Source: a virus (Duplodnaviria; Caudoviricetes). From it: DNA of 64,000 nt. The stretch covers positions 32,001 through 96,000 of IMG/VR virus record IMGVR_UViG_3300011226_000001; one strand, written 5' to 3'. Below the pieces are notes generated by a model. That model saw only the letters and a program-made list of their open reading frames with translations, did not search any database and was not told the origin of the DNA. This document shows positions 1 through 32,018 of this stretch, one piece after another (position 1 is the stretch's first letter; each line of letters begins with the position of its first letter). A program made the translations under genes and the position numbers.

Positions 1-190
1 CTACAGGTTCAGACTGACCGGGCTCGATATAGAAGCAGGTGTTTGCTCCTGTCTTACCGACAATATACATCTGACCTTTGATTTCCACAGAGTAGCGCCA
101 GTCAAACAAAGCACGAACTTCTGGTTCGTGGTTAGCTTCGGTCGACAGCGCTTTCTTCACTTGCTGCTTTAGAATAGAAAACAGGTTCAT
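1..190 (-). CDS. hypothetical protein, 3'-truncated by the window edge
   Basis: ATG at 190 with GAGGA RBS; reads MNLFSILKQQVKKALSTEANHEPEV and stays open to the window edge. Confidence 0.7.
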   Translation of the reverse strand, partial: MNLFSILKQQVKKALSTEANHEPEVRALFDWRYSVEIKGQMYIVGKTGANTCFYIEPGQSEPV

Positions 191-197
191 TTGTTCC

Positions 198-464
198 TCA
201 ATCCGCCAGTACGTAAAGGTCCATCAATTCTGATGCGGTGATCGCGTCGTATTTACCGTTCTCGTTTTTCACTGCGTAGTTGCCAACTGCCACATTCGCC
301 AGAGTCGGCTTACCGAATTGGTCTGTTACACCAATCTGAACATAGCGCCCTACAACGTAACCGCTGCCGTTGAGAAAGTTATTCATCTCCTCAACGTTCT
401 CACCGTTCCACTGACAGGCTTCAATCACTGGAACTCGTTTTAACTGAAAGCGATTAATCATCAT
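198..464 (-). CDS. hypothetical phage protein (88 aa)
   Basis: ORF with GAGG RBS, tightly packed in the operon. Confidence 0.75.
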   Translation of the reverse strand: MMINRFQLKRVPVIEACQWNGENVEEMNNFLNGSGYVVGRYVQIGVTDQFGKPTLANVAVGNYAVKNENGKYDAITASELMDLYVLAD

Positions 465-473
465 ACCCTCGCG

Positions 474-1094
474 TTACTGCTGCTGGCGCTTTTCAAGGAA
501 CTCTCGCACCAGACCTGCATAGTTGTGATAGACGTTGCGCTTCACACCGAGTTTGTGTGCTGCAACGATCATTGACGGACTCGATAAGAACTTAGGCGTG
601 TCGTCCAGTTCTTCACGCGCTCCGTGTTCATCGAACTCAGACCCTGCTGCGAATCGCACAGCCTTGTCTGCTACAATGAACTCGTGGTCGAGGTCGAAGT
701 GCTTCAAACGACCAGCGATGCGCCCGAGTTGTCGTTGCTTCTGATAGACATTTACAGAAATTGAGGAGGCAACGACAGGCGTAGACCCACATTTGAGATC
801 ATCGCAGTAGATGATGTTATGACTCTGACCGCATTGGTCAATCATGTTGCGAGCCACCAGCGAACCTACATAGCTGCTAATCAAGAACAGACCGCGATAC
901 GTGCCGAGCACATTACCGATATGCTTCTCAATCTCTTCGGGAGTAAATCCCATAGACAGCGAAGGATAAGTTGCTGCTACTGCGCGGCGTCGTGGATCAC
1001 TAGGAGCGTGAACACGCGCTTTAATGCCGGACTCTAGCAGATTGTGGAATACGTAGCTTCCGCCTACGCCACCGTCAATGATGTGTACTAACAT
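474..1094 (-). CDS. divergent Asp/Glu racemase (MurI)-fold-like protein
   Basis: Start moved to MLVHIIDGGVGGSYV (GAGG RBS), which resembles the MurI N-terminal motif IGVFDSGVGGLSV; the catalytic Cys motifs are not evident. Confidence 0.5.
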   Translation of the reverse strand: MLVHIIDGGVGGSYVFHNLLESGIKARVHAPSDPRRRAVAATYPSLSMGFTPEEIEKHIGNVLGTYRGLFLISSYVGSLVARNMIDQCGQSHNIIYCDDLKCGSTPVVASSISVNVYQKQRQLGRIAGRLKHFDLDHEFIVADKAVRFAAGSEFDEHGAREELDDTPKFLSSPSMIVAAHKLGVKRNVYHNYAGLVREFLEKRQQQ

Positions 1095-1095
1095 A

Positions 1096-1965
1096 TTAAG
1101 TCCTCGTTGACCAATCACGCGCAAGATCCATAACACGCTTGCGACCGTTGAAGTTGATCTCAGGATTATCCAGTAAGCGTTCGAAGTACGCAGGTACTCC
1201 AGCTTCTGTTTGATAGCCGCGGTGAGGACGATGCCCTACCACAGCGATGTGATCAGCCCATGCTTCTGTAATTGGCATTTTTTGCTTAGGCTGATTTAGT
1301 TCTTGCCACGAACGACCGATGAAGTAGTCATGGACTTTCTTCAACAGCCACGGGTTAACGTGAGTCAGGCCGAAAGTGTCGCACAGCATTTCGTGTTGCA
1401 GCATACCACTTGGGTTATAGCCGTCGACGCCGAGAGACTTCTTACCGTTCTTGAACCACGGAGCCCAGTATTCTTTGCGATACTCGTCGAACTTTTCGAG
1501 TACGCTATGCGGGCCGCTGATTTTTGCGATGTGGGTGTTACGCGCAAAGCAGAAGTAAGCGTCAGCAACAAGGCCGCTGAGAACGTACTTGTAACCTGCT
1601 TCTTTGATTGCCTTGTAGCAATACACCATAGGGTAAGCACACTCATAGTCACGCTTTTTGATACAGCGATACTTGGCGTGAAGTGTGCGCCAACCCTGAG
1701 CGATAGCAGTGTCAGACGTAGGAACTTTCACAAGCGTGAACTCCCAACCCATCTTCTCTGCGACTTTACGCGCGTGTTTGCTGTCGAAACTTTCGTTGTC
1801 GCCCATCTGGAAAGTAAAGGCATGTACCTTCTTTCCTAAGTCATGGGCAGCGAGCCCGCTAACAAGTCCGTCAAGACCACTGGATAGCAGCACTGCCACC
1901 TTGTCGTCTTTGACTTCTGCTTTAACGTGCTGTTCAAACAGCTTGCGCAAAACGTGTTTAGCCAT
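1096..1965 (-). CDS. asparagine-synthetase-like ATP pyrophosphatase (PP-loop amide ligase), no glutaminase domain
   Basis: VAVLLSSGLDG (cf. LSGGLDS) and VLSGLVADAYF (cf. vlsGeGaDElF); 289 aa, synthetase domain only. Confidence 0.75.
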   Translation of the reverse strand: MAKHVLRKLFEQHVKAEVKDDKVAVLLSSGLDGLVSGLAAHDLGKKVHAFTFQMGDNESFDSKHARKVAEKMGWEFTLVKVPTSDTAIAQGWRTLHAKYRCIKKRDYECAYPMVYCYKAIKEAGYKYVLSGLVADAYFCFARNTHIAKISGPHSVLEKFDEYRKEYWAPWFKNGKKSLGVDGYNPSGMLQHEMLCDTFGLTHVNPWLLKKVHDYFIGRSWQELNQPKQKMPITEAWADHIAVVGHRPHRGYQTEAGVPAYFERLLDNPEINFNGRKRVMDLARDWSTRT

Positions 1966-2902
1966 GATTACCCAGCCTTAAAATATTCGCAGTTGTTGTT
2001 CCGTGAAGTTCAGCCAGATAGTCTGCGCGAACGTTAGGACCGAGTAGTTCAATCTCAGAGTCAAACGGTAGCTCAGTATCTGACAATACGAAGGCATGGT
2101 TCATGCTGATTGCGTGGTCAACTCCTGTAAGCAACGTGACTTGCGCATGTGGTGCGTCAGGACAATGCACAGGTGTGTTCTTGGCAGACTGATACAGGTT
2201 ATCGTAGTAACCCACATCAATCGAGTACAGGAACTTGTCTGCGCAGTTAGGTACTAATGCACCGTAACCAAATACTTTACCTGCATCCAGCTTATCGCAG
2301 ATACGAGCAAGCACTGTCTTCGCTACACGCAAATTACCGTTCACAGTTTCATCGCTACTATAACCGGTAAGTGCCATGCCAACACGCGGTTTCAACTTCG
2401 GCGCGTACGGATTAAGCACGTTCATGCTTGAGCCAACAGACAGCATAGACAGCGGTACGTTGTAGCGTTGTGCAATCTCGTTAGCATCGTACTCAGACAC
2501 AGGCACACGGTAATCATCCGAGTGAACAAGAATCAATGCTGGTGGGTGCGTTAAACCTTCAGGCTTGACGTTGATACGACGACAACCCCAATCAGCAAAG
2601 ACAGCGTATCGTCCTTCATACTTGCCTACTTGCTTTGCGTTCAGAACAGGCACTGTATTCCACATGCGCCCGTCTACACCACCGAGAATTAACAGCGTGT
2701 GGTCGAGTTCAAGTTCACGCAGCGCGAGCACGTCACGGTCGCTATGAACAGCGAGCACCTCAAACCCTAAAGAGAATGCTTTCACGCAATCTAAACCATG
2801 CCCGTAGAAATTACCTTTCACAACCGGAATCATGGACGGAGCGAGTGATTTTAAATAGGCCGCATTACTCGCTAACGCGGCATTGTCGATTAAGACTTTC
2901 AT
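1958..2902 (-). CDS. alr: alanine-racemase-like PLP enzyme
   Basis: VVKGNFYGHG (PLP Lys), RVGMALTG, FGYG (catalytic Tyr position), DVGYYD, ISMN. Confidence 0.8.
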   Translation of the reverse strand: MKVLIDNAALASNAAYLKSLAPSMIPVVKGNFYGHGLDCVKAFSLGFEVLAVHSDRDVLALRELELDHTLLILGGVDGRMWNTVPVLNAKQVGKYEGRYAVFADWGCRRINVKPEGLTHPPALILVHSDDYRVPVSEYDANEIAQRYNVPLSMLSVGSSMNVLNPYAPKLKPRVGMALTGYSSDETVNGNLRVAKTVLARICDKLDAGKVFGYGALVPNCADKFLYSIDVGYYDNLYQSAKNTPVHCPDAPHAQVTLLTGVDHAISMNHAFVLSDTELPFDSEIELLGPNVRADYLAELHGTTTANILRLGNHG

Positions 2903-3933
2903 CAGCGTTTCAGCGTCGTGATGTAGTGAGCAACACGGTCGAACTCTTCACCGCCCGCTTGTGGATCAAACGCTACGTAACCACTGCTCTTAGAAAGATT
3001 ACGCAGATACACTTCACGCTCTTTCCTTGTCATCTTCACTTCGCAGAAGTTGATACTGATACCGACAACTTTCGGGTACCAGTCGTGCATTGCGGCAGCA
3101 GCGAGATTGGCAGAGATCTCGTCAACGATGTTGATCTCGCGCTCGGTGTTCATCATGAAGTTGCGACCGACAGTGTGGCAGACAACGATAGCGTCAGGCT
3201 GAGAGCCAGCAATCAGGCTCATGCTACCGCCGGTGTAAGCTGGATGACGCAGCGCACCCTGACCTTCAATCAGATAGATAGCTTCTTCGTCAGCAGGTGA
3301 CAGCCACTCAGCAGCACCGGCAAGGAAGTCAGCGACCACAGTGTCGTTGTTGATGCCACGACCGCTAATCAGAAAACCAGTTTGACCGGTAGCACAGAAC
3401 ACAGCTTTCTGTTTCAGCTCGGTCAGCTTCTTGGTCAGTGCGAGTGCAGTAAATTTCTTACCGCACGAACAGTCAGTACCAACAGTAAGAACACGAACAC
3501 CGGCACGAGGCAGACCAGTGCCCAGAGGATATTGCTCAGGGTGGTGGCGGAAGTCATACAGCGATACTCCATGCTCACGAGCTAAAGCGAAGTATTTAGG
3601 GTTGTCAGACAGCTTGACATGCAGAGCAGCAGCAACGTTCAGGCCTCGCTTCAATGCTTCGCAGATGGCGCGATCAATGTCTTCGTTAATCTGACCGCCA
3701 AATGGTGCAAACCCGATGACCAGAGTTTCTGCATCGGTCTTATCGAGGTCACGAATTTCAACGTGAGGCATTTCAGGGAACAGGTTGTTAGCATCGTCAA
3801 CTACACAGCAGACTTTCTCTGACGCCCACTCAACCATACCGGCAGTGATCTTCGCCATTGCTTTCGTCGTGGCGTTACCACAGAACATCGCGTACGGTTG
3901 CGGAATATTATAGATATCACCAATCACGCTCAT
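2902..3933 (-). CDS. DUF1611 / DgcN-like P-loop protein (D-glutamate N-acetyltransferase family)
   Basis: GTDCSCGKKFTAL, ATGQTG, DFLAGAAE, IEGQGALRHP; start MSVIGDIY overlaps the upstream stop. Confidence 0.8.
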   Translation of the reverse strand: MSVIGDIYNIPQPYAMFCGNATTKAMAKITAGMVEWASEKVCCVVDDANNLFPEMPHVEIRDLDKTDAETLVIGFAPFGGQINEDIDRAICEALKRGLNVAAALHVKLSDNPKYFALAREHGVSLYDFRHHPEQYPLGTGLPRAGVRVLTVGTDCSCGKKFTALALTKKLTELKQKAVFCATGQTGFLISGRGINNDTVVADFLAGAAEWLSPADEEAIYLIEGQGALRHPAYTGGSMSLIAGSQPDAIVVCHTVGRNFMMNTEREINIVDEISANLAAAAMHDWYPKVVGISINFCEVKMTRKEREVYLRNLSKSSGYVAFDPQAGGEEFDRVAHYITTLKR

Positions 3934-5195
3934 TTCTTCTTCCCTTTCGTTTTGATTTTGGTGCCATCGAACGTCAAGCCCATACGAGCATGACACTTGT
4001 GTATAGCTTTTACAGTACGCATTAACGTCTGCGTCTTCGACCAGTCTACTACGCCTTTTTCTTCGAGTTCTTTCGACAGGTCGGTCTTCATAGGCTTGCC
4101 GTCATCAGGCACGACTGCATTCTTCATGAAGTCAGCCCAGCCTTTGTCTACGCTCTTGCACCAGTTTGTCAGCAGCGTAGCGCGTTCAGCTTTCGTCAGG
4201 TACTTCGTGCAAGCCCAGTAAGCAATCTCATTGCCCAGTTCTTCCACCTCTTTCGCAGTCACACGGTCAACAGTGCGAATGTGGATGTGCTTGTTCTCAG
4301 AGCAGAAGCGCGTATAGTCTCGCGCCCAATCGTACTTAGAAGTTTGCACAACGAACGTCGGGCAGTACGGAATAGTCTCACGTACACCGTTAGCGAATGA
4401 CTCTACTTCGGCACATGACAGCGCTACGGTACATTGTCCAATGAACGCCATCTTCTCGTCGCCGGACAGACCGCTAACGACTTGATAATCTTTCACACCT
4501 GCATCAGCAAGCTCTTTCTCCCAGCTTCTGACTTGACGATCAGAGCCGGTCATCACACGAACAGGCAGACCAGATGCAGCAGCAATACGCGCAGCAAACG
4601 CAGGACGCTTAACCTTCTCGTATCGACAGATAATCAGCAGCGAGGGTTTACGTTTCGCAGGAGGATTGTAGTCTGATACACTGAATGCGTTGTACGCAAC
4701 AGCAGCCTCAGTTTTATAAATCTCAGACAGCACACGCGCAGTTGAGTCACAGTTCGCTAAGATACGCAGACCAGTGACAGGCGCTTGCAGCAGCGCACGG
4801 TGCATCTTCTCAGCGCCAAGCCCGTTCAGGTCTTGCGTCAACAGGAAGCTGTTATGTGAACGGTAGTAAACAGGCATAATCTTAGGCAGCCCGAGACCGA
4901 CAGCAGCTTCGACAGCTTCGTAGGTGCTACAAATGATTGCACGGTACGGAGTGCGGTCGAGCGCTTCGAGCAGAGCACTTTGAATGTGACCAACTTTGTA
5001 CCCGTCACTCAGAGTGGTGTCACCGTAGTTAAACCACTGGCTCTTGGTGACAGAGCTGTTTTCACCGTCAGTGATGAAGTCGCAGAAGCCGTACGCTTCG
5101 AGTCCATCAATGTACGCACCTACACCAGACTTGGTTCTGTCCAGAAGAGTCTTGTGAGGCACGATTGCTAAGATACGCCCGTTTACTTTCATCAT
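3930..5195 (-). CDS. glycosyltransferase, GT-B fold (GT4-like)
   Basis: SGVGAY, CRYEKVKRP, SCAEVESFANGVRE (ExF...E signature); start moved to MMKVNG. Confidence 0.7.
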   Translation of the reverse strand: MMKVNGRILAIVPHKTLLDRTKSGVGAYIDGLEAYGFCDFITDGENSSVTKSQWFNYGDTTLSDGYKVGHIQSALLEALDRTPYRAIICSTYEAVEAAVGLGLPKIMPVYYRSHNSFLLTQDLNGLGAEKMHRALLQAPVTGLRILANCDSTARVLSEIYKTEAAVAYNAFSVSDYNPPAKRKPSLLIICRYEKVKRPAFAARIAAASGLPVRVMTGSDRQVRSWEKELADAGVKDYQVVSGLSGDEKMAFIGQCTVALSCAEVESFANGVRETIPYCPTFVVQTSKYDWARDYTRFCSENKHIHIRTVDRVTAKEVEELGNEIAYWACTKYLTKAERATLLTNWCKSVDKGWADFMKNAVVPDDGKPMKTDLSKELEEKGVVDWSKTQTLMRTVKAIHKCHARMGLTFDGTKIKTKGKKK

Positions 5196-5202
5196 ACTTC
5201 CC

Positions 5203-5973
5203 TTACTTAATTGCGATCCATCCAGCGAAGTTAAGATCGCGGTAGAAACATTCAACGCGGTCGAAGCCTGCTTTGCGCAGCAGTTCTTCGTTCCACGCGG
5301 CTTTGACAGGTACGAGTACGCCTTCAAGAGCTTTGCGTTTCGTCGCAATGCTCTCTTGCGAATAACCGTTGTCGCCCTTCATGCCGTAGTAAGTATCCAC
5401 CAGCAGACGGTCGAGGAAGTTGTCGTCACCCAACACTTTCTCAACGAGAATGAACGCACCGCCTTTCTGCAACGAGTCGTACACTTTCTCCAGAATGTGC
5501 TGACGATGTTCTATCGGCGTAAACTGGAGAGTAAGTACCGATAGAATAAGCGAACACTCTACCTGCTCGTCGAAGCGGAACGTGTCTACTTCAACCAGCG
5601 ACTCGCTACTGATTTTCGCTTTAGCCGTTTTCAGCACAGGGTTTTCACGCAGACGCTCAAGCATTGCAGGCGCGACTTCGTAGCAGCAATACATGTTGCC
5701 GACTTCACGATCAGGCTCAGGACGATCAGCAGCGTGGAGATACATGTACTCGCCGAACTCAGCACAGAACGGTTCGATAGCACGTCCAAGTGAAGCACCC
5801 AGATCAACGATAGCTGAACCCGGAGTCACGAACTGGCGACCAAGACGATAGGTCAGATCGCGCATACGATCATAGGAAGGAATTGAGTTTTGCAGCATGT
5901 TATCGAACACAGCAGCAACTGGCTCATTGAACTCCCAGCGACCGACAGGCATTGTTTTATCAACGTTGCTCAT
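5203..5973 (-). CDS. cmoA: CmoA-like SAM-dependent enzyme (carboxy-SAM synthase / methyltransferase)
   Basis: WEFNEPVAAVFDNMLQNSIPSY, DLGASLG, LTLQF, GGAFILVEK, GYSQESIATKRKALE and NFAGWIAIK follow E. coli CmoA motifs. Confidence 0.8.
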   Translation of the reverse strand: MSNVDKTMPVGRWEFNEPVAAVFDNMLQNSIPSYDRMRDLTYRLGRQFVTPGSAIVDLGASLGRAIEPFCAEFGEYMYLHAADRPEPDREVGNMYCCYEVAPAMLERLRENPVLKTAKAKISSESLVEVDTFRFDEQVECSLILSVLTLQFTPIEHRQHILEKVYDSLQKGGAFILVEKVLGDDNFLDRLLVDTYYGMKGDNGYSQESIATKRKALEGVLVPVKAAWNEELLRKAGFDRVECFYRDLNFAGWIAIK

Positions 5974-6023
5974 GTTTAAATTCCGTTATTTGTTTTGACA
6001 GCAGAAATTACCGTTCGCAGATG

Positions 6024-6785
6024 CTAGACGCGAAAACGACGACCGCTAACAGTGCCTCGTGTTTCCGAGGAATCACTAAAGCCGCGCGTCTTATCTGGAG
6101 GCGCAATAGGTCCGTTAAACACAGCAGCCAGATCATTGTACGCACGAGGCTCCGCCAACTTTTTGCCAGCAGCAGCGGCATCAGCTTTTGCTTTCTCACG
6201 CGCTTTCTTTGACGCAACGATACGAGGGTCGGTATATAGAGGCTCGCGTTTCATATCCAGAATGGACATCATGCGATGTGGGTGCGTTTCTGCAATCTGA
6301 CGTATCTTGTCCATCTCACCTTTGCGTACTGCCATGCGCAGGATAGACTGACCTGTTGAGATTTCAGATGTTGTACCGGCGCGGACTAAACGACGACGAC
6401 ACTCACCCAAACCGAACCATGTTCCCGCTGATTTCCACACAGAGTAGTCACCACGAGACAACTGACCGAAGCGTTTAAGCTCAAGGAAACGGAACTGCCA
6501 GTTGCTACCGTAAAGATTAATTGCAGCAGCGATGTAGATAGGTTGAATGTTGAGAGAAAGACCAATCTCTACAGCATTGTACGAAGCAGTACAGAAAGAG
6601 CCGACCTGAGAAAGACAGAACTCGAAATATTCTAACGAGTCGGCACACAGGTCACTCGTAGCTGACTTGCTAAGAATGCGTGTGCGCCCATCTTTCATAA
6701 GTCCCTCAAGCATCTCACGACTAGGCGTGGGCCGAGTATAATCCAGTCTCTTTAAACGGGCTTCAATTTTCTGTACAGTAATCAT
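6024..6785 (-). CDS. hypothetical protein
   Basis: 253-aa ORF coupled to the neighbouring gene. Confidence 0.7.
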   Translation of the reverse strand: MITVQKIEARLKRLDYTRPTPSREMLEGLMKDGRTRILSKSATSDLCADSLEYFEFCLSQVGSFCTASYNAVEIGLSLNIQPIYIAAAINLYGSNWQFRFLELKRFGQLSRGDYSVWKSAGTWFGLGECRRRLVRAGTTSEISTGQSILRMAVRKGEMDKIRQIAETHPHRMMSILDMKREPLYTDPRIVASKKAREKAKADAAAAGKKLAEPRAYNDLAAVFNGPIAPPDKTRGFSDSSETRGTVSGRRFRV

Positions 6786-7126
6786 GGCACGTACTCCGAC
6801 ATCTTATCGTGCGTTGTTACGCCTTCCAGATAGTCACATGCAATGAGCTTTAGACGGAAGGTTGTTTTGTCTTTCGGGAAGACGTTAGCGTCCAGATTGC
6901 GGAACGAGCAACTGTATCGTACTCGGTACAAACCGCCTTCTGTCTGAGCGTACAGGACTTCGTTTTCCTGAATCGCTTGAATTACAGGTACGGCGCATCC
7001 CGGCTTCACTTCTACCTGTATTGATTTCGTCGCTTGCTCAACGACGACACTTAAAATTGAGTGTTGGCCACTATCGGTTCCATCTCCGTAAAAGAGCCAA
7101 TCAAATCCGCGTATTGTATTCATCAA
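6782..7126 (-). CDS. hypothetical protein
   Basis: 114-aa ORF, ATGA overlap. Confidence 0.7.
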   Translation of the reverse strand: MMNTIRGFDWLFYGDGTDSGQHSILSVVVEQATKSIQVEVKPGCAVPVIQAIQENEVLYAQTEGGLYRVRYSCSFRNLDANVFPKDKTTFRLKLIACDYLEGVTTHDKMSEYVP

Positions 7127-7138
7127 TACACCCCAGAG

Positions 7139-7732
7139 TTATTGCGCAACGCCCCGCACAAAGTTAGTGTTGTAGTTGCGTGGAAGATAAGCGTACATGT
7201 TGAACTGATACTTTTCACAAATAGCATCAAGCACTACACATACTTCTTCCCACGAAACCCCGCCGAGTCCGCCATAGAAACGCTGAATAGCGATCTGTCG
7301 GTCAATAGCAATGTTTTGTTTATCGCACTGCTCAAGCAAGTCGTCAAACGCTCGCGTGAGGAACTTCTCACTGAAACGATTGATAGGCTTGTGGAACCCA
7401 GCGGACGAACCGTTGAGACCCAGACCGAAACCGCGCGCAATGTGCATGTTAGCAACAAACAAATTGCGGCGATATTGAGTACCGACACGGACCATGTGCG
7501 TCTTACCGATTGTCAGTTCATGCTCATAGTCGATTGTCTCAACATGACGCAGAACTTCCGGGAAGCGACGTGCAATACTCTTTTGAATAGGACTGCCGTA
7601 AGCACCGCGAGCGTTACACTCAACACCAATAACACGGAACTTACCTTGAATGAAGTCAGTAACGAGATTGCCCTTCTCGACAGGGATTACTCGAAACTGC
7701 TTCGGGGCGTAACCGATAGCAGATAAATCCAT
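7139..7732 (-). CDS. macrodomain protein (Appr-1-p / ADP-ribose-processing family), divergent
   Basis: CNARGAYGSPIQKSIARRFPE, VANMH, RFYGGLGGVSWEEV. Confidence 0.7.
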   Translation of the reverse strand: MDLSAIGYAPKQFRVIPVEKGNLVTDFIQGKFRVIGVECNARGAYGSPIQKSIARRFPEVLRHVETIDYEHELTIGKTHMVRVGTQYRRNLFVANMHIARGFGLGLNGSSAGFHKPINRFSEKFLTRAFDDLLEQCDKQNIAIDRQIAIQRFYGGLGGVSWEEVCVVLDAICEKYQFNMYAYLPRNYNTNFVRGVAQ

Positions 7733-12896: not shown

Positions 12897-15725
12897 TTAT
12901 TTCCGGCCAATCATTCGAGTACGAGCACTACCAAGAACACGACCACTAGGCAGAGCAACGCGCGAGCTACTAGCAGTGCCTGAGTTGAGTCGATGCGCTA
13001 CGCGACCCAAGCGATTCGGGTCACGGTTGATTGATACTTCTGGTGCTTTCGTCAGATACTCGTCGTACTCGCCACACTCGAAGCCATACACCATGAGTGC
13101 CATTGCTCGCCACAGGTCATCGGTTGCCCCTGTGTTCTTGATTACGCTGCGGCCTGTATCTTGCACAGTCTGCAATTGCATGATCAAGTGCTCTGTTGGT
13201 TTGTTCTCGAAGCACTGAGGATATTCGTCACCGTCGTATTTCAACGTGTCAGCAATCTTGTCAGCGTGAGTCATTCGCGGTAGACTAATGCGTGACGGCG
13301 TTGATTCGAACATCGTCTTAACTGTCCACATGTCCTGATACTTCAAGCTGTACTGGTCGGACTCCTCGATGGAATCCACTTTCAGTTTCGCATCCTGCAA
13401 CAACTTGAGTGACTGCCACTGGTCAGCAAGCATTACGCGAACGTTACGCGCTTTGCACAGCGGAATAAGCAGTTCATCAAATATCAAGGTGTAGTTCAGA
13501 GGGATGCCTGGCTTCGGTACGATCTCAACAAGACAATCGACACTGATAATCCCTGCATCGTCGCGTGAGCCTGTAACGAGTGCGAAGCTGTTGTTCGAGA
13601 AGCCTGCGTCAATTGCAAGTATCGACGCTTTGGTTGTCGTTGCCGCTTTGACGAGACTGCCATAGCGCTGGCGTTCACCGTCTTTGTGTCGAATGATGTG
13701 ATGGGCATATGTACACATCGAACGACCTTTCTCACGTATTGCATCCTGAATGAAGGTTGGTTGCGTGATGAATGGGTTAGCAGACAACGGTGCTTCTGCT
13801 CCGTAATCTCGGGCTGCACCTACCGGGTCACGACGAAACGCTTCTACAAGGAACTCAGAGGTACGCGGCATTGTCGGGTTCATCTTCCACGTAGGAGCAT
13901 GAATACCGAGCAGCTTCTCAGAGCCTACTGACATACGAAGCAATTCGTTAATCTTATCACGGGCGTGAACCGGACTACTGATGTTACAGAAATATCCCGT
14001 GAATGCTTCATCATAACCGGATTCGACTTGCCGCATCTCGGCAGAACGAACAGTTGCGAGTGAACGGTCAAGTGCACCGTAGACTGCACCAGCACTGACT
14101 TTGATCTTCTTGGATTGGGCGTCGTTGTCGAAATACGCCACTTCGTCGATTACCGCCAGTACGCGGGTTCGACCACGAAGAATACGACCATCAGGTCCGG
14201 CAGGGTAGATAACGAAGTTCCTGTGTCCGTACAGTACGAACGTGTCACGAATCTTCATCACTTCGATGCCGTAACGGCGCTCGTGTTTGCGAATCAAATC
14301 GTGATAGGCTTGGAACCACGGACTACCCATGATGTAGTTGAAGTACGGAGTCCACAATGTATCAGACGCTTGCTTCTGGGTAAGCGCAACGAACGTACCG
14401 TGCAATACGGTTGTGCTGTCGATGCCCAAGATACCAGTAGGCGACTGCGACATAAGCAGTCTGTGCGTCAGATAGGTAGAGATCATCGCTACTACAACTG
14501 ACTTACCGCTGTTGTGATGCAGAATGCCTGACGCAACGAATTGAGGCAGACCTTCCATCTGCAAGTCATACGTGACCTGCGGAGTACCGTCATCAACGGA
14601 CATTACTTCGATGTGAATCGAACGACACTGAGGCTGCTCAGTCAAGTCATAGACTAAGCTCCACATGCGCGTACCGTGAACGATTTGCGGCAAGTGTCCT
14701 GCGTTGATCAGAATCGACCACACCATTTGAAGTGCGTCAACATCATCGGTAACGTACTGCATCTTTTCGCCCAGAGGCACACTGCGTTCAGCGATATAAC
14801 GCAGCGCTTCTTCACGCGTAGACAGACCAGCATCATAGATACTTACAGGACGCTGTATCTTGCCCCATGAGTTCGTACCGAGTTTGACTTCGATACGCTC
14901 ACCGCCGCGCAGCTTCGACACTTTCTTAAAGCCTTGCTCAGTACGCACAGGGTGCTCATGAGTTGCTTCAATCCACATACCGTTTGCGAGCGTGACGACT
15001 TTGGTAGGCGCTACGTCTGACACATAGACTTGACTGACGTTCTTGATCTCACGGCCGTTGTGCGCGTTGAAGTTACGCTGCGGCTTGTGGAACCCAGGCA
15101 CATCATGACCAATCATCATGTGACCGATAGGCATAACACCACGAGAGGTCAGCACAGGAGTTGAGGCAATCACACAACGCTGTCCGGCGTTCACCGCCAG
15201 TTCGTTGTAGAAGTTCATCTCTTTCTTGCGAATCATCTCAGAACGACGAGAGCCGCAATGGGGGCACACACCATTGTGAAGCAGGTGTAAATGTGTCTCT
15301 ATTGCGGCTGTCGTTTCTTGAGGCTCGTGGTTTTCAGTGTACATCCATTGCAAGTTTGGTGAGCACTTAACGCAGATCTCACCAAACAAGCGCAGACCAA
15401 TCATGGCCTGTTCGAGATAAGGGTCGGCTTTTAAGAAGTCAGGACTCGTACACCACTCAAGGAAATTCTTGGCGCGTGGCATCGCACTATCATCAAACTT
15501 CAAATCGCGTGGCACAAGTGTGCGCTGCTCTAAAGCCCCTTCAACGAGATCGACAATGTTGACCTCGCCCTTTTCGAGAAAGTTAATCCCACTCGAACTA
15601 TTATCCGACAAGAAATCCATATCGGATGAGGCATCCGCCTGAACGTCATCACCAAGTAGTGCATCGAATGCAGCTATTCGCTTAGGACGTATCGTGAATG
15701 CTGGGCCCTTTTTAGGCTTGGCCAT
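12897..15725 (-). CDS. terL: terminase large subunit with intein
   Basis: Walker A AGQR|SGKS split by the intein; LRGRT; Walker B VIDE; ISSP; nuclease motifs AIDAG, DQWQS, TDDLWRA. Confidence 0.9.
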   Translation of the reverse strand: MAKPKKGPAFTIRPKRIAAFDALLGDDVQADASSDMDFLSDNSSSGINFLEKGEVNIVDLVEGALEQRTLVPRDLKFDDSAMPRAKNFLEWCTSPDFLKADPYLEQAMIGLRLFGEICVKCSPNLQWMYTENHEPQETTAAIETHLHLLHNGVCPHCGSRRSEMIRKKEMNFYNELAVNAGQRCVIASTPVLTSRGVMPIGHMMIGHDVPGFHKPQRNFNAHNGREIKNVSQVYVSDVAPTKVVTLANGMWIEATHEHPVRTEQGFKKVSKLRGGERIEVKLGTNSWGKIQRPVSIYDAGLSTREEALRYIAERSVPLGEKMQYVTDDVDALQMVWSILINAGHLPQIVHGTRMWSLVYDLTEQPQCRSIHIEVMSVDDGTPQVTYDLQMEGLPQFVASGILHHNSGKSVVVAMISTYLTHRLLMSQSPTGILGIDSTTVLHGTFVALTQKQASDTLWTPYFNYIMGSPWFQAYHDLIRKHERRYGIEVMKIRDTFVLYGHRNFVIYPAGPDGRILRGRTRVLAVIDEVAYFDNDAQSKKIKVSAGAVYGALDRSLATVRSAEMRQVESGYDEAFTGYFCNISSPVHARDKINELLRMSVGSEKLLGIHAPTWKMNPTMPRTSEFLVEAFRRDPVGAARDYGAEAPLSANPFITQPTFIQDAIREKGRSMCTYAHHIIRHKDGERQRYGSLVKAATTTKASILAIDAGFSNNSFALVTGSRDDAGIISVDCLVEIVPKPGIPLNYTLIFDELLIPLCKARNVRVMLADQWQSLKLLQDAKLKVDSIEESDQYSLKYQDMWTVKTMFESTPSRISLPRMTHADKIADTLKYDGDEYPQCFENKPTEHLIMQLQTVQDTGRSVIKNTGATDDLWRAMALMVYGFECGEYDEYLTKAPEVSINRDPNRLGRVAHRLNSGTASSSRVALPSGRVLGSARTRMIGRK
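14511..15176 (-). mobile_element. cis-splicing intein (222 aa) in the terminase Walker A motif
   Basis: Begins CVIASTPV; block B ATHEHP; block F TYDLQM; ends HHN followed by Ser. Confidence 0.92.
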
Positions 15726-16512
15726 TCTCGTTCTGCTTCTTCCTGTATTCAGTAAACCCGCGCGTTGTTCCTATACCTGTACCTTTAGCAACCAGCTCGT
15801 CGTTACCGTGCATCAAGCGTCGAATCTGGGCACGTAATGAATTGTTCCCTAGCTTCGCTTTGTGCTCTGCTCGCACGTCATCGAACGATTTGATTAACCA
15901 GTCTTTCAGGACGTCTGCACGTACTGATTCAGGTACTGACTGTGACTTCGAAAGCATAACGCCGATGATGTTCGCAAGCCCTACGCGCTCTATATAAGGC
16001 ACAAGCTCACTATCAATCTCTAAGTCTGTTTTGAGACAGTCTTTCGAGATCGCTTCTACTTCACCGGCTGCGATATCAAACCCAAGTATTGGGCTAAACA
16101 CCTGATGCAGCAGATAGTCACGGAATGTTTGCGCGTGTTCGTCAACACTGTCCAGCGTACCGTCAATTACTTCGGCGCTGACTGTGAAGACGTTCTCTGG
16201 ACCAACGTGGTCTTTGTTTTTACGGGAACGGACTTCATTGAGTCGAGGCTTGATAAGAAGTCGGGACTCAGTTTTTGAGATCGCTGCGGCTTCTTCGTCG
16301 AGGTCGAGAGTGTCGTCATCGTGTTCCTCTACAGGTATACTGTGGATTGCATGAATGTCATTCACCATACGCACACGCATAGTGGTGTTTGGCATCTTAT
16401 CAAGTTCCCACGCTTCTACTCGGCGCACCTGCCCATGCTTAACAGGGTACGTCCAGCGAGGAACCATGTGATCAGACTCAACAAGTCCGTATGGGCCTTC
16501 GAACTTAGCCAC
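15712..16512 (-). CDS. hypothetical protein (terminase small subunit candidate by position only)
   Basis: Directly upstream of and overlapping terL. Confidence 0.6.
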   Translation of the reverse strand: MAKFEGPYGLVESDHMVPRWTYPVKHGQVRRVEAWELDKMPNTTMRVRMVNDIHAIHSIPVEEHDDDTLDLDEEAAAISKTESRLLIKPRLNEVRSRKNKDHVGPENVFTVSAEVIDGTLDSVDEHAQTFRDYLLHQVFSPILGFDIAAGEVEAISKDCLKTDLEIDSELVPYIERVGLANIIGVMLSKSQSVPESVRADVLKDWLIKSFDDVRAEHKAKLGNNSLRAQIRRLMHGNDELVAKGTGIGTTRGFTEYRKKQNENGQA

Positions 16513-16747
16513 GGTTGAATACGTACTTATCGGCGTGATCGTCGAACGTCATCTGCACTGCGTAATGAGTAACGTCGCTCATATCAGTACGATTCGGTTC
16601 ACCGGGATTCTGACAGTGGAACCCATTATAGTTCGGGTACATGCCAGAGAGTTCAGCACCCTCCTTGGTGCGAATGTGATAGACATAATCCTTGTCTATG
16701 TTGTTGCGGGCTTCGTCATCAAAGACGAGCCAGTCGATATTGTCCAT
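16505..16747 (-). CDS. hypothetical protein
   Basis: 80-aa ORF with AGGAG RBS. Confidence 0.7.
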   Translation of the reverse strand: MDNIDWLVFDDEARNNIDKDYVYHIRTKEGAELSGMYPNYNGFHCQNPGEPNRTDMSDVTHYAVQMTFDDHADKYVFNRG

Positions 16748-16755
16748 GAAGACTC

Positions 16756-18264
16756 CTAAGCTACGTCATACGATTTACGCTTCTTCTTTTTCTTCGGCAA
16801 ATCGTCATCGTCGTCATCATCGCTATCGTTACCTGAATTGAGGAACGCAGCAGCACCACGACGAGACTTCTTAATCTCAATCTTATCCTTCTTCTTGAAA
16901 TTACCTTTTCCGAATTTCTTCTTGGACGCTCCGCCGCCTTCCATATCATCAGCAGAGATTGCTTTCGACTTCGGAACTTCTGTGCCCTCTTCTGCATCTT
17001 CAACACGCATTTTCTCAAACACGTCTTTCAGAGGCATTTCGAACAGTTCACCATCACGCGCTTTCATTACCTGAACAGGAATGATTTTACCTTCACGCAC
17101 TTCTGGGTCAGAGTAGTTCCATGCCCACACAACGTCGGCGTGCTCACGCATACCTCCAGAGTAACGAATACGTCCAGACTGATCATCAAGCTGACACAGG
17201 ATAACAACAAGCTGACCTGTTGCGGACGCGTGTACTTTCGCTTTACGAACAACGGTAGACAGTTCTCGCCACTGGTTGTCGTTGTCGATACCTTCAAGCA
17301 GACCAACGTAGTCAATGAACGTTACGTGTACGCCATATGGAATCGACATATACAGAACGTCATCAATCGACATGCCCCGCTCAGGTGAAGTGAACGAGTT
17401 ACGTCCCTTCGACTTGCTCATGAGCTTGTCATACTTCTTCGCGGCTTTCAGCAGTTCTTTCTGCTCACGCTGCGAGAGTTTACCCTGCTTGATCTTCCAG
17501 AAGTCGATGCCACTGATCATGGACAGCATACGCTTCATTTCCTGCTCGGCGGTCATTTCGAGAGTGACCTTGAGACAGTGAATGCCATTGATCTTTGCCA
17601 TACGGTCTGCGATGTTCATTGACAACACAGACTTACCGCCGGACGTTGAACCAGCTAACAACACTACACCAGTCGTCGGCCAACCGCCGTTCTTCTTGTC
17701 GTAGCTTGTGAAACCGGTCTTGTACATCACTTCTTTCGGGTTAGTGATTACCTGCTTCGCTAACTTGGTCGCGTTCGACTTCTTGCCACCAAACGTCCAG
17801 ACTTTCTCTGTCGTTCGTGTGCCACGCTGCGCTTGCCCGAGCTTATCTGCCAGCTCTTGCATATACGTCTGCTCGTCGAACTCTTCCGGGTCAGCCTCAC
17901 CGAAGTCTTTGGCAATCATCTTACCCAGGTTCATGATATCACGACGCTGGCGATACTTTTCCAGACTGTCGTAAATCTTATCAAACCCTTTCATGGTCTT
18001 CGCTGGCATTTCCTCTGCTTCACGCAGACTGTCCCTGAACTCCTCGCTCAGGTTAGGATCTTCCAGCAAGTCATCCCATTCAATTATTTCGCTTTTGACT
18101 TCCACCAGCTTAGTTATGCGGCGGAATGCCTTGCGAGTGACTTCCGAACTAAAGTGAGAAACGCCAAGACGGCCCATCATGGCCGTCCTGTATGCTTCCT
18201 TAATCTTTGGGTTCGTGACAGTTCGAATGGCCCTAACTTCAAGGCCAAGCGAAAACATTTCCAT
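16756..18264 (-). CDS. dnaB: DnaB-like replicative helicase
   Basis: LAGSTSGGKS, TLEMTAEQ, FIDYVGLL, LCQL, REHAD, KARDG. Confidence 0.92.
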   Translation of the reverse strand: MEMFSLGLEVRAIRTVTNPKIKEAYRTAMMGRLGVSHFSSEVTRKAFRRITKLVEVKSEIIEWDDLLEDPNLSEEFRDSLREAEEMPAKTMKGFDKIYDSLEKYRQRRDIMNLGKMIAKDFGEADPEEFDEQTYMQELADKLGQAQRGTRTTEKVWTFGGKKSNATKLAKQVITNPKEVMYKTGFTSYDKKNGGWPTTGVVLLAGSTSGGKSVLSMNIADRMAKINGIHCLKVTLEMTAEQEMKRMLSMISGIDFWKIKQGKLSQREQKELLKAAKKYDKLMSKSKGRNSFTSPERGMSIDDVLYMSIPYGVHVTFIDYVGLLEGIDNDNQWRELSTVVRKAKVHASATGQLVVILCQLDDQSGRIRYSGGMREHADVVWAWNYSDPEVREGKIIPVQVMKARDGELFEMPLKDVFEKMRVEDAEEGTEVPKSKAISADDMEGGGASKKKFGKGNFKKKDKIEIKKSRRGAAAFLNSGNDSDDDDDDDLPKKKKKRKSYDVA

Positions 18265-31217: not shown

Positions 31218-32018
31218 TTACTCGTCGTCTTCGTCTTCGTCTTCATCGTCGAAGTCTTCGTCGTCTTCATCTTCGTCTTCGTCGTCTTCGTCGTCTTCAC
31301 CGCCGAAGTGTTCTTCGCAGAGTTCGCGCAGTTCATCTTCGTCCATTTTCTTCGCCTTTTTAGCGGCGGCCAGCTTGTGTTCGATTACCAGGGCGCGAAG
31401 TTCGTCTTCGTCGAGGGCGTCGAGATCGAGGTCTTCATCATCCTCGTCTTCATCTTCGTCCTCGTCTTCATCTTCGTCTTCGTCGTCCTCTTCTTCATCG
31501 TCGCCGTCTTCGTCGTCTTCGTCGTCCTCTTCTTCATCATCAGAGTCTTCGTCGTCTTCGTCGTCGTCGCCGTCTTCATCTTCGTCGTCGGACTCTTCGT
31601 CCTCGTCTTCGTCCTCTTCTTCTTCGTCTTCGTCCTCTTCGGACTCGCCGCCCAGGTTGTCGTTCAGCAGTTCGCGCAGTTCGTCTTCATCCAGCGCTTT
31701 AGCTTTCTTAGCGGTAGACAGTTTGGCTTTGACAACCGCTTCGCGCAGGGTGTCTTCGTCAACGCCGGAAATGTCCAATTCTTCTTCGTCCTTCACAGCA
31801 GCGACGATTTCAGCGACGGTAGGTGCTTTGGCCTTTTTGCCTTTAGCAGCTTTACCGCCTTTGTCAGCTTTAACAACTTTACCACCAGACACGGTCAGAC
31901 CGGCAGATGCGAGCAGCGCAGCGATTTCTTTGTCGGTTGCGTTCTCTACTACGACACCCAGCATTTTAGCCAGAACCAGAGATGCGGTGTTAACGGTTGC
32001 TTTAGCAGCTTTAGCCAT
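31218..32018 (-). CDS. highly acidic protein with two DEDELRE helical modules
   Basis: Long D/E tracts, strong codon bias. Confidence 0.8.
   Translation of the reverse strand: MAKAAKATVNTASLVLAKMLGVVVENATDKEIAALLASAGLTVSGGKVVKADKGGKAAKGKKAKAPTVAEIVAAVKDEEELDISGVDEDTLREAVVKAKLSTAKKAKALDEDELRELLNDNLGGESEEDEDEEEEDEDEDEESDDEDEDGDDDEDDEDSDDEEEDDEDDEDGDDEEEDDEDEDEDEDEDEDEDDEDLDLDALDEDELRALVIEHKLAAAKKAKKMDEDELRELCEEHFGGEDDEDDEDEDEDDEDFDDEDEDEDDE

Follow-up and report, generated by a model that had tools for sequence, protein, structure and literature searches.

An expanded CmoA–CmoX–CmoY operon in an Erwinia jumbo phage probably links D-amino-acid enzymes and a glycosyltransferase to cytosine hypermodification

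Introduction

Hypermodifications based on hydroxymethyl-pyrimidines include glucosyl-hmC in phage T4, arabinosyl-5-hydroxycytosine in RB69 and HY126, and the amino-acid and polyamine adducts of 5-hmdU. In these systems a reactive handle at pyrimidine C5 is extended with sugars or amino compounds via GT-B enzymes.

A second route is provided by CmoA, CmoX and CmoY of Synechococcus phage S-B43, which together produce 5-carboxymethylcytosine (5cxmC) and the amide that it forms with glycine, 5-glycylcarboxymethylcytosine (Yang et al., Nat Commun 2025, PMC12783734). This core pathway was published in December 2025 with the structure of CmoX (PDB entry 8YF3), and its authors describe 5cxmC as a carboxylate "handle" and regard many of the associated ligases as probably using unknown amines (PMC12783734). 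A further relevant system, the DgcN–DgcA pathway of marine bacteria (NF041892, PDB entry 7XRJ), serves D-glutamate catabolism and pairs a DUF1611 protein with an enolase-type N-acetyl-D-Glu racemase. No D-amino-acid enzyme was found described as part of a DNA hypermodification pathway in the literature searched.

Here we analyze a 64,000-nucleotide stretch of phage DNA (the window; positions 32,001 to 96,000 of IMG/VR record IMGVR_UViG_3300011226_000001), in which an earlier sequence-only reading had seen a six-gene biosynthetic cluster forming an uncharacterised pathway. That description does not hold for the pathway as a whole, since its CmoA/CmoX/CmoY core is the one already published (PMC12783734). 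Most likely, what is new is the joining of D-amino-acid enzymes and a sugar transferase to this known core.

Results and Discussion

The operon belongs to the 268 kb genome of an Alexandravirus-type Erwinia jumbo phage. Six co-directional genes, with bounds set by annotated orthologues, occupy 474–5973 of the window on the minus strand, and the contiguous run proposed from sequence is borne out by their packing, with overlaps or gaps of no more than 10 nt throughout. The start of the DUF1611 gene overlaps the stop of the glycosyltransferase gene by 4 nt, and the start of the Alr-like gene overlaps the DUF1611 stop. The surroundings are those of DNA metabolism, comprising genes for a 5′–3′ exonuclease, a primase, a Dam-type methyltransferase, a dCMP deaminase and a thymidylate-synthase homologue. 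A portal gene lies approximately 5 kb past the CmoA-like gene.

The operon opens with a predicted carboxy-SAM synthase of 256 residues (5203–5973, minus strand). CmoA is by far its top family (TIGR00740, 146.3 bits, under the NCBIfam equivalog cut-off of 193.3), and the protein matches phrog_4752. Its best solved relatives are the CmoA structures 4GEK, 4IWN, and 1IM8 (E 2e-30 to 1e-26), headed by E. coli CmoA (4GEK, 2e-30), whose Arg199, a contact of the carboxy-SAM carboxylate, aligns with Arg213 here. The assayed S-B43 enzyme (SpCmoA) is 30% identical (E 1e-28). In RefSeq the gene is labelled "tRNA methyltransferase". By homology to the assayed enzyme, the protein would convert SAM and prephenate to carboxy-SAM; a DAHP synthase gene in the related cassette L011 is an indirect hint in the same direction. 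As in S-B43, no CmoB was found in the phage genome.

The CmoX gene sits outside the window (G000, 15049–17202), approximately 15 kb from the operon and behind a ParB-like gene, a neighbor association also noted in PMC12783734. Its closest solved relative is SpCmoX (8YF3, E 3e-52, compared with 1e-14 for M.HaeIII). CmoX proteins have been defined by an SPPC catalytic motif together with an Arg at the position of SpCmoX Arg350 (PMC12783734), and both are present here: ERLGR aligns with ERVGR of 8YF3, placing its Arg at the Arg350 position (motif X), and the catalytic motif is split by an intein into GSPP and CKGFS, the latter supplying the +1 Cys. GSPPC and ER[LIV]GR are retained in every CmoX candidate checked. 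CmoX and CmoA genes share one operon in contigs L015, L020, and L031 and in phages PaBG and S-B43; here they share a genome. On these sequence features, the genome is predicted to encode a CmoX-type cytosine C5-carboxymethyltransferase, which, after removal of the intein at the catalytic cysteine, would transfer the carboxymethyl group to DNA cytosine to give 5cxmC.

The interruption of a catalytic motif, together with several family scores below their cut-offs, could be taken to mean that this phage has a non-functional or partly decayed pathway, owing to a splicing-deficient CmoX intein or to relic accessory genes. This is the least likely reading considered. The intein retains Cys1, the terminal HN and the +1 Cys, and the intein-bearing allele is kept in 46 Erwinia phage records. 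All six operon frames are intact, with protein identities of 82–99% across at least eight isolates (96–99% for the ligase).

The third core enzyme, CmoY, corresponds to an ATP-dependent amide ligase of 289 residues (1096–1965, minus strand). Residues 6–139 match the PP-loop domain of asparagine synthetase (PF00733, 57.8 bits) and, as in the S-B43 enzyme, a Pfam search of the protein identified no glutaminase domain, in agreement with the initial assignment as an Asn-synthetase-like ligase. The assayed S-B43 CmoY (SpCmoY) is 34% identical over 276 residues (E 7e-54), and S-B43 provides the top match beyond the Erwinia/Dickeya group. The window ligase belongs to a tight subtype, termed type i, with clade support of 100/100, members 60–87% identical to one another and a variant PP-loop, SSGLDG. 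SpCmoY falls in a separate clade; an amine other than glycine is therefore plausible for the window ligase. Thus the locus shares the three core enzymes with S-B43 but differs from it in several respects: the S-B43 genes are adjacent and the system adds glycine, whereas here CmoX is distant and intein-bearing, the ligase is of another subtype, and four more genes lie in the operon. Three of these encode GT4-like, DgcN-like, and Alr-like enzymes, which are not mentioned in the text of PMC12783734 or in a portion of its supplements; the fourth encodes a 206-residue protein.

The DUF1611 protein (343 residues; 2902–3933, minus strand) contains both domains of its family (PF17396, 66 bits; PF07755, 166 bits), and its DgcN-like assignment is further upheld by an NF041892 ("N-acetyltransferase DgcN") score of 296.7 bits and by alignment to 7XRJ (E 8e-58). 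It resembles the DgcN–DgcA system in domain composition and in its link to an enzyme that would interconvert amino-acid stereoisomers. However, this DgcN score falls short of the 480-bit equivalog cut-off, the setting is a phage DNA-modification operon rather than a catabolic one, and no enolase-type DgcA partner was found by Pfam within the six-gene cluster, where an Alr-fold gene adjoins DUF1611 instead.

This neighbor encodes a 314-residue PLP enzyme (1958–2902, minus strand) scoring above the cut-off for PF01168 (34.8 bits) and weakly for PF00842. The PLP lysine motif (VVKGNFYGHG) and the GY tyrosine (VGYYD) align with those of alanine racemase 4QHR, so that the Alr-like assignment also stands. 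Lys29 is invariant, and Tyr232, the second catalytic Tyr, is present in five of the six family members and replaced by Asn in L011. The TIGR00492 score (36.3 bits) is far below the equivalog cut-off of 168, and the family therefore does not fix the substrate. Homologues with 38–49% identity occupy the same operon position in L011 and L020, and all those found are on phage-type contigs. Judging from its sequence, the protein is probably an amino-acid racemase. Since the CmoA-, DgcN-, and Alr-like proteins all score under NCBIfam equivalog cut-offs, we infer their activities.

The glycosyltransferase (420 residues; 3930–5192, minus strand) has no Pfam match, including to PF00534, although homologues with 39% and 48% identity match that family weakly (L035, 22.5 bits against a gathering score of 26.4; P0013, also weak). 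Its AlphaFold2 model (pLDDT 78) has a GT-B/GT4 fold at a Foldseek probability of 1.0. The top PDB matches are BshA (3MBO), tetrahydrobiopterin glucosyltransferase (9V0L), and the phage HY126 glycosyltransferase (9IQZ), with E values of approximately 1e-9 and TM scores of approximately 0.55; MshA and SenB are also similar (probability 1.0), and matches in BFVD are phage group-1 glycosyltransferases. A Glu264-x7-Glu272 pair is invariant in the family alignment, which together with the fold confirms the GT4-like assignment. The C-terminus carries a lysine-rich extension of approximately 90 residues. The proximity of 9IQZ recalls the hydroxymethyl-pyrimidine systems, from which this locus differs in that its handle would be a carboxylate derived from carboxy-SAM, not a hydroxyl, with coupling by an ATP-dependent amide ligase.

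GT4 enzymes often modify proteins, lipids, and small molecules, and virion proteins, the host envelope, and tRNA had been raised as alternative targets from sequence; these are unlikely. Specifically, the cluster might decorate virion proteins or host surface polymers by glycosylation or aminoacylation, with CmoA acting independently, either to supply carboxy-SAM to host CmoB for tRNA cmo5U or to drain SAM against SAM-dependent defences. The RefSeq label on CmoA would fit the former, and SAM depletion is raised as a possibility in PMC12783734. We nevertheless consider this account very improbable, given that the phage lacks CmoB and its genome has a CmoX with the carboxy-SAM arginine, that these genes share operons with CmoX in other phages, and that the gene surroundings, albeit with the portal gene nearby, are those of DNA metabolism.

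The final gene of the operon encodes the 206-residue protein, which has no assigned function (474–1094, minus strand). It has no match in Pfam (E up to 10), NCBIfam, or PHROG, and only five cluster representatives among 1.8 billion proteins. The gene is located 3′ of the CmoA/CmoY pair in all three contigs with enough context, directly after CmoY in two of them. It had been read as MurI-like, and Glu/Asp racemases do rank first in two structure searches, albeit weakly (Foldseek E 0.04–0.1; VIA Z 6.3–7.5) and from a poor model (pLDDT 65); an atlas structure search gave inconsistent results. MurI is expected to have two catalytic cysteines, whereas the six-member family alignment contains no invariant Cys, its invariant residues being Asp7, Ser74, Ser78, Asp86, Ser91, Lys131, Ser172, and Tyr192. 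With no Pfam match in addition, the MurI-like identity is not supported.

Accessory genes (DUF1611, Alr-like, glycosyltransferase) adjoin CmoY in five types of metagenomic phage contig, with CmoA in the same operon in four of the five and CmoX in three. The gene orders are CmoX-GT-DUF1611-CmoY-CmoA (L014–L016), CmoX-DUF1611-Alr-CmoY-CmoA (L020/L021), CmoX-DUF1611-CmoY-CmoA (L031), CmoA-84aa-GT-DUF1611-Alr-CmoY-DAHP synthase (L011), and GT-DUF1611-CmoY-123aa-GNAT (L035). DUF1611 accompanies type i CmoY in 6/6 tabulated cases and additionally in L035 (66% identity); in L031 it is paired with a type ii CmoY. The recurrence of the same genes together in several divergent phage lineages indicates that their clustering is beyond chance.

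It could be argued that only CmoA and the ligase modify DNA, so that the product is a plain 5cxmC amide like that of S-B43, and that the glycosyltransferase, DUF1611, Alr-like, and 206-residue proteins form a separate auxiliary module sharing the operon, for example in synthesis or detoxification of D-amino-acid derivatives or in reshaping host peptidoglycan precursors. Bacterial DgcN uses free D-glutamate (NCBIfam name; PMC12363236), free amino acids are the substrates of Alr-fold enzymes, and some related phages (cassette D, below) manage without all three accessory enzymes. We regard such a module as unlikely: the accessory genes adjoin CmoY in five divergent contig types, are placed between CmoX and CmoY/CmoA in L015, L020, and L031, with frequent stop–start codon overlaps, and include a DUF1611 partner for every type i CmoY examined, while Alr-like homologues were found only on phage-type contigs.

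The operon is thus probably an expanded CmoA–CmoX–CmoY pathway for hypermodifying cytosine C5 in phage DNA. The DNA base hypermodification favored by the sequence-only reading remains the best-supported interpretation, given the CmoX in the genome, the CmoY homologue and the accessory genes inside CmoX–CmoA operons; the chemistry of the adduct is more conjectural. By homology to the assayed enzyme, type i CmoY would adenylate the 5cxmC carboxylate and then form an amide bond to an amine. In the window cassette this amine may be a D-amino acid made by the Alr-like PLP enzyme, and in phages that lack the Alr-like gene the host pool of D-Ala or D-Glu could be the source. The DgcN-like protein, whose family N-acetylates free D-glutamate, might acylate a leftover amino group or aid delivery of the D-amino acid, although the step has no clean chemical rationale because N-acetylation of the alpha-amine would block the amine that CmoY needs. 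The GT4-like enzyme might use an NDP-sugar as donor to glycosylate an adduct hydroxyl; an acceptor is not obvious unless the amino acid bears a hydroxyl. The product could act as a shield, protecting phage DNA against restriction enzymes and other DNA-reading nucleases.

It is tempting to speculate, with less than even confidence, that the adduct is a previously undescribed one, 5cxmC amide-linked to a D-amino acid and further acylated and/or glycosylated, that DgcN-family and Alr-fold enzymes have been newly recruited to DNA modification, and that interchangeable cassettes produce different adducts. Counterpoints to an expanded pathway are the location of CmoX outside the cluster here, the L011 Alr-like protein without the second Tyr, the type ii CmoY of L031, and the extra GNAT of L035. 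If true, the proposal would give the poorly understood DUF1611/DgcN family a second biological role and help to explain differing evasion of host defences among fire-blight biocontrol phages. In any case, the cassette offers concrete candidates, a D-amino-acid branch and a sugar, for what the 5cxmC handle carries, and might be a source of novel enzymes for site-specific DNA functionalisation.

For these Erwinia and Dickeya phages, the literature searched contained neither chemical nor restriction data. Related phages carry different versions of the cassette, exchanged at the operon locus: cassette D comprises CmoA-CmoY, with no glycosyltransferase, DUF1611, or Alr-like gene; cassette B has DUF1611 in addition; cassette C adds the glycosyltransferase; and cassette A, carried for example by pEa_SNUABM_17, _1 and _3, adds Alr. 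Such swapping might diversify the shield. Cultured phages of Erwinia amylovora and Dickeya solani with sequenced genomes carry cassettes D, B, C, and A, which can naturally be compared as a series. In an earlier comparison, a C5-methyltransferase, an Asn synthase, and a methyltransferase were listed as shared by AD1 and Y3 and missing from JA11 (Day et al., PMC6143709). tblastn searches with CmoY and with CmoX returned equal counts of jumbo-phage records: 46 from Erwinia, two each from Dickeya and Pseudomonas, and one from Yersinia.

Cluster organization

The source genome is a 268,224 bp phage genome with direct terminal repeats, of which the window spans bases 32001-96000. At the DNA level, 474-5973 shares 93% identity with Erwinia phage pEa_SNUABM_17 (genus Alexandravirus), and 33 Erwinia and Dickeya jumbo-phage records match this stretch. 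With bounds adopted from annotated orthologues, the genes of this stretch all lie on the minus strand and encode a CmoA-like protein (5203-5973), a 420-residue GT-B/GT4-like glycosyltransferase (GT, 3930-5192), a DUF1611 protein (2902-3933), an Alr-like protein (1958-2902), an Asn-synthetase-like ligase (1096-1965), and a 206-residue protein (474-1094). Gene junctions either overlap or leave gaps of at most 10 nt. Scans for consensus promoters and terminators over 1-7200 returned sites no more frequently than in shuffled sequence, and therefore do not inform operon boundaries.

A probable CmoA-CmoX-CmoY core

The sequence-only reading proposed an uncharacterised pathway for DNA base hypermodification. 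Hypermodification is largely supported, and the best-supported reading of the cluster is an expanded CmoA-CmoX-CmoY pathway; the core of that pathway, however, has already been published. In Synechococcus phage S-B43, CmoA produces carboxy-SAM, CmoX, a C5-methyltransferase homologue with a diagnostic SPPC motif and Arg350, writes 5-carboxymethylcytosine into DNA, and glycine is attached to this base by CmoY, a ligase resembling Asn synthetase (PMC12783734).

The CmoA-like assignment holds: the closest solved relatives are CmoA structures (E 2e-30), the TIGR00740 model scores 146 bits (below its cut-off of 193), and Arg213 aligns with Arg199 of Escherichia coli CmoA. Identity to S-B43 CmoA is 30%. 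CmoB, DAHP synthase, and chorismate mutase were not found in the phage genome. The ligase contains an Asn-synthase PP-loop domain (residues 6-139) and lacks a glutaminase domain. It is 34% identical to S-B43 CmoY (E 7e-54), and S-B43 provides its top match beyond the Erwinia/Dickeya group.

A candidate CmoX, a 717-residue C5-methyltransferase homologue, is encoded approximately 15 kb before the window (genome positions 15049-17202). Its closest solved relative is S-B43 CmoX (8YF3, E 3e-52, vs. 1e-14 for M.HaeIII), and the Arg of its ERLGR motif aligns with Arg350. GSPPC and ER[LIV]GR motifs are present in all CmoX candidates checked. The gene upstream of CmoX is labelled ParB-like on the basis of its RefSeq annotation and 43% identity to an annotated ParB-like protein of phage PaBG, and a Pfam search gave no ParBc match; this neighbor parallels the ParBc association reported for CmoX (PMC12783734). 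Searches by tblastn with CmoY and with CmoX agreed in how many jumbo-phage records they recovered for Erwinia, Dickeya, Pseudomonas, and Yersinia. Day et al. described a cytosine methyltransferase, an Asn synthase, and a methyltransferase common to phages AD1 and Y3 and missing from JA11 (PMC6143709).

An intein of approximately 357 residues splits CmoX (positions 3049-5202 of L005, the genome stretch before the window). Its insertion point falls precisely between GSPP and the catalytic Cys that completes the SPPC motif, and it retains Cys1, the terminal HN, and a +1 Cys. A distant metagenomic phage, L014, carries a CmoX intein at the identical site (L014:7783-10014), while the CmoX alleles of metagenomic contigs L016 (near-identical to L014), L020, and L031 are intein-free. 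It looks like a homing intein aimed at the CmoX active site. The IMG/VR contig L031 has, just 3′ of its cassette, a 491-residue ORF with an intein splicing domain (L031:11064-12539).

Cassette versions and ligase clades

Erwinia and Dickeya relatives carry at least four versions of the cassette between conserved flanks: CmoA-GT-DUF1611-Alr-CmoY-206 aa (the window), CmoA-DUF1611-CmoY-206 aa (AD1, Alexandra), CmoA-GT-DUF1611-CmoY-84 aa (pEa_SNUABM_7), and CmoA followed by a divergent CmoY and a 206-aa-like protein (pEa_SNUABM_2 and _5). The DUF1611 proteins of the window and AD1 (L002:7485-8540) are 58% identical, far more diverged than CmoA (97%) and CmoY (85%), so that the cassettes appear mosaic and recombinant. 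The DUF1611 protein of the unrelated phage L020 is about as near to that of the window (56%).

CmoY ligases split into two clades. Type i ligases have an SSGLDG PP-loop (clade support 100/100) and are mutually 60-87% identical, even with GTs at just 36-39%. Type ii ligases have SGGVDS-like loops and share 24-29% identity with type i. In a midpoint-rooted tree, S-B43 CmoY is the sister of type i. A DUF1611 gene is found with every type i ligase examined, but exclusive pairing is ruled out by L031, in which DUF1611 accompanies a type ii ligase. A metagenome scan with a type i CmoY profile returned three loci only, too few to estimate prevalence.

Accessory enzymes and conserved synteny

Three further assignments of the sequence-only reading were borne out. 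The DUF1611/DgcN-like protein contains both Pfam domains and matches 7XRJ (E 8e-58), scoring 297 bits against the DgcN model (cut-off 480). The Alr-like protein scores above the PF01168 cut-off, and its VVKGNFYGHG lysine motif and GY tyrosine align with alanine racemase; across the family, Lys29 is invariant and Tyr232 is found in five of six members. The 420-residue protein has no Pfam match, and its GT4 assignment comes from an AlphaFold2 model (pLDDT 78) that matches GT-B/GT4 enzymes, namely BshA, tetrahydrobiopterin glucosyltransferase, the GT of phage HY126, SenB, and MshA (E ~1e-9, probability 1.0), as well as phage group-1 glycosyltransferases. An E-x7-E pair is invariant in this GT family. 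HY126 DNA carries arabinosylated 5-hydroxycytosine (PMC13326640).

These genes keep company with CmoY in divergent metagenomic phages (percentages are protein identities to the window orthologues). The order is CmoX-GT (39%)-DUF1611-CmoY-CmoA in L014-L016, where CmoX may or may not carry the same intein; CmoX-DUF1611-Alr-like (49%)-CmoY-CmoA in L020/L021, which represent a different phage that also encodes DnaG, RecA, and Acb1; CmoX-DUF1611-CmoY-CmoA in L031 (216 kb); CmoA-84 aa-GT (36%)-DUF1611-Alr-like (38%)-CmoY-DAHP synthase in L011; and GT (48%)-DUF1611-CmoY-123 aa-GNAT in L035. Restriction of the Alr-like gene to cassettes with a GT is ruled out by L020, which has the former and lacks the latter. 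Judged by this conserved synteny, the answer to whether the accessory genes belong to the CmoA-CmoX-CmoY pathway would be yes.

The core pathway is known, and the accessory enzymes are not part of its published description. The text of PMC12783734 does not mention a racemase, DUF1611, glycosyltransferase, Erwinia, Dickeya, or jumbo, and related terms including "glycosyl" are absent from those of its supplements that were searched. In the literature searched, CmoX in the carboxymethyltransferase sense was not found elsewhere, nor were relevant data on the restriction or modification of Y3, PaBG, AD1, or any Alexandravirus phage. The chemistry of the cassette is open to immediate testing in cultured phages.

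The L020 operon has an Acb1 (anti-CBASS phosphodiesterase) homologue three genes downstream (L020:11495-12004), thus clustering DNA modification and anti-signalling counter-defence genes.

Proposed chemistry

By homology to the assayed enzymes, CmoA would make carboxy-SAM, CmoX would carboxymethylate cytosine C5, and CmoY would form an amide in an ATP-dependent reaction. Beyond these steps, we infer the D-amino-acid component and the sugar. Co-occurrence of an Alr fold with DgcN, both families tied to D-amino acids, points to the former. Since the Alr-like gene is optional among cassettes, its product may simply boost supply, as the DAHP synthase at the end of the L011 cassette could do by raising shikimate-pathway flux to prephenate, the CmoA co-substrate. 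That DAHP synthase (L011:14162-15025) scores 180 bits against TIGR00034, above the cut-off, with the first ~46 profile positions missing. The GT would attach a sugar to a hydroxyl, for which D-Ser or D-Thr fits better than D-Ala or D-Glu. This is in tension with the substrates known for DgcN, namely acidic D-amino acids and the corresponding amides (PMC12363236).

Two genes after GT-DUF1611-CmoY, L035 encodes a 302-residue GNAT acetyltransferase (L035:8523-9431). Its presence suggests that some versions of the cassette perform a further acylation, and casts doubt on DUF1611 as the acetyltransferase of the pathway.

The 206-residue protein and neighboring genes

The MurI-like label given to the last gene of the cluster is not supported. 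Glu/Asp racemases top two structure searches at non-significant levels, using a poor model (pLDDT 65), and an atlas fold search disagrees with this ranking, returning unrelated families (TM <0.5). The family has no invariant Cys, which excludes a two-thiol racemase. No match came from NCBIfam, PHROGs, or Pfam, the last searched up to E 10, and only five relatives were found among 1.8 billion cluster representatives. The 203-residue gene after CmoY in PaBG was considered as a relative and is unrelated (hhalign probability 0.3). A hydrolase or a transferase would also be compatible with the invariant Ser, Asp, and Lys of the family. ESM-atlas features lean weakly toward small α/β hydrolases (scores 0.88-0.93), and are leads only.

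The protein encoded at 7139-7732 had no Pfam match at E 0.01; its AD1 and pEa_SNUABM_5 orthologues are annotated as O-acetyl-ADP-ribose deacetylase/Appr-1-p processing (macro domain) proteins. Before the window, a GIY-YIG/NUMOD3/I-TevI-type homing endonuclease adjoins a 253-residue thymidylate-synthase homologue (L005:8377-9327 and L005:9396-10157). The latter matches profile positions 1-168 of 266 only, and may be a split gene, an atypical gene, or a pyrimidine hydroxymethylase-like enzyme.
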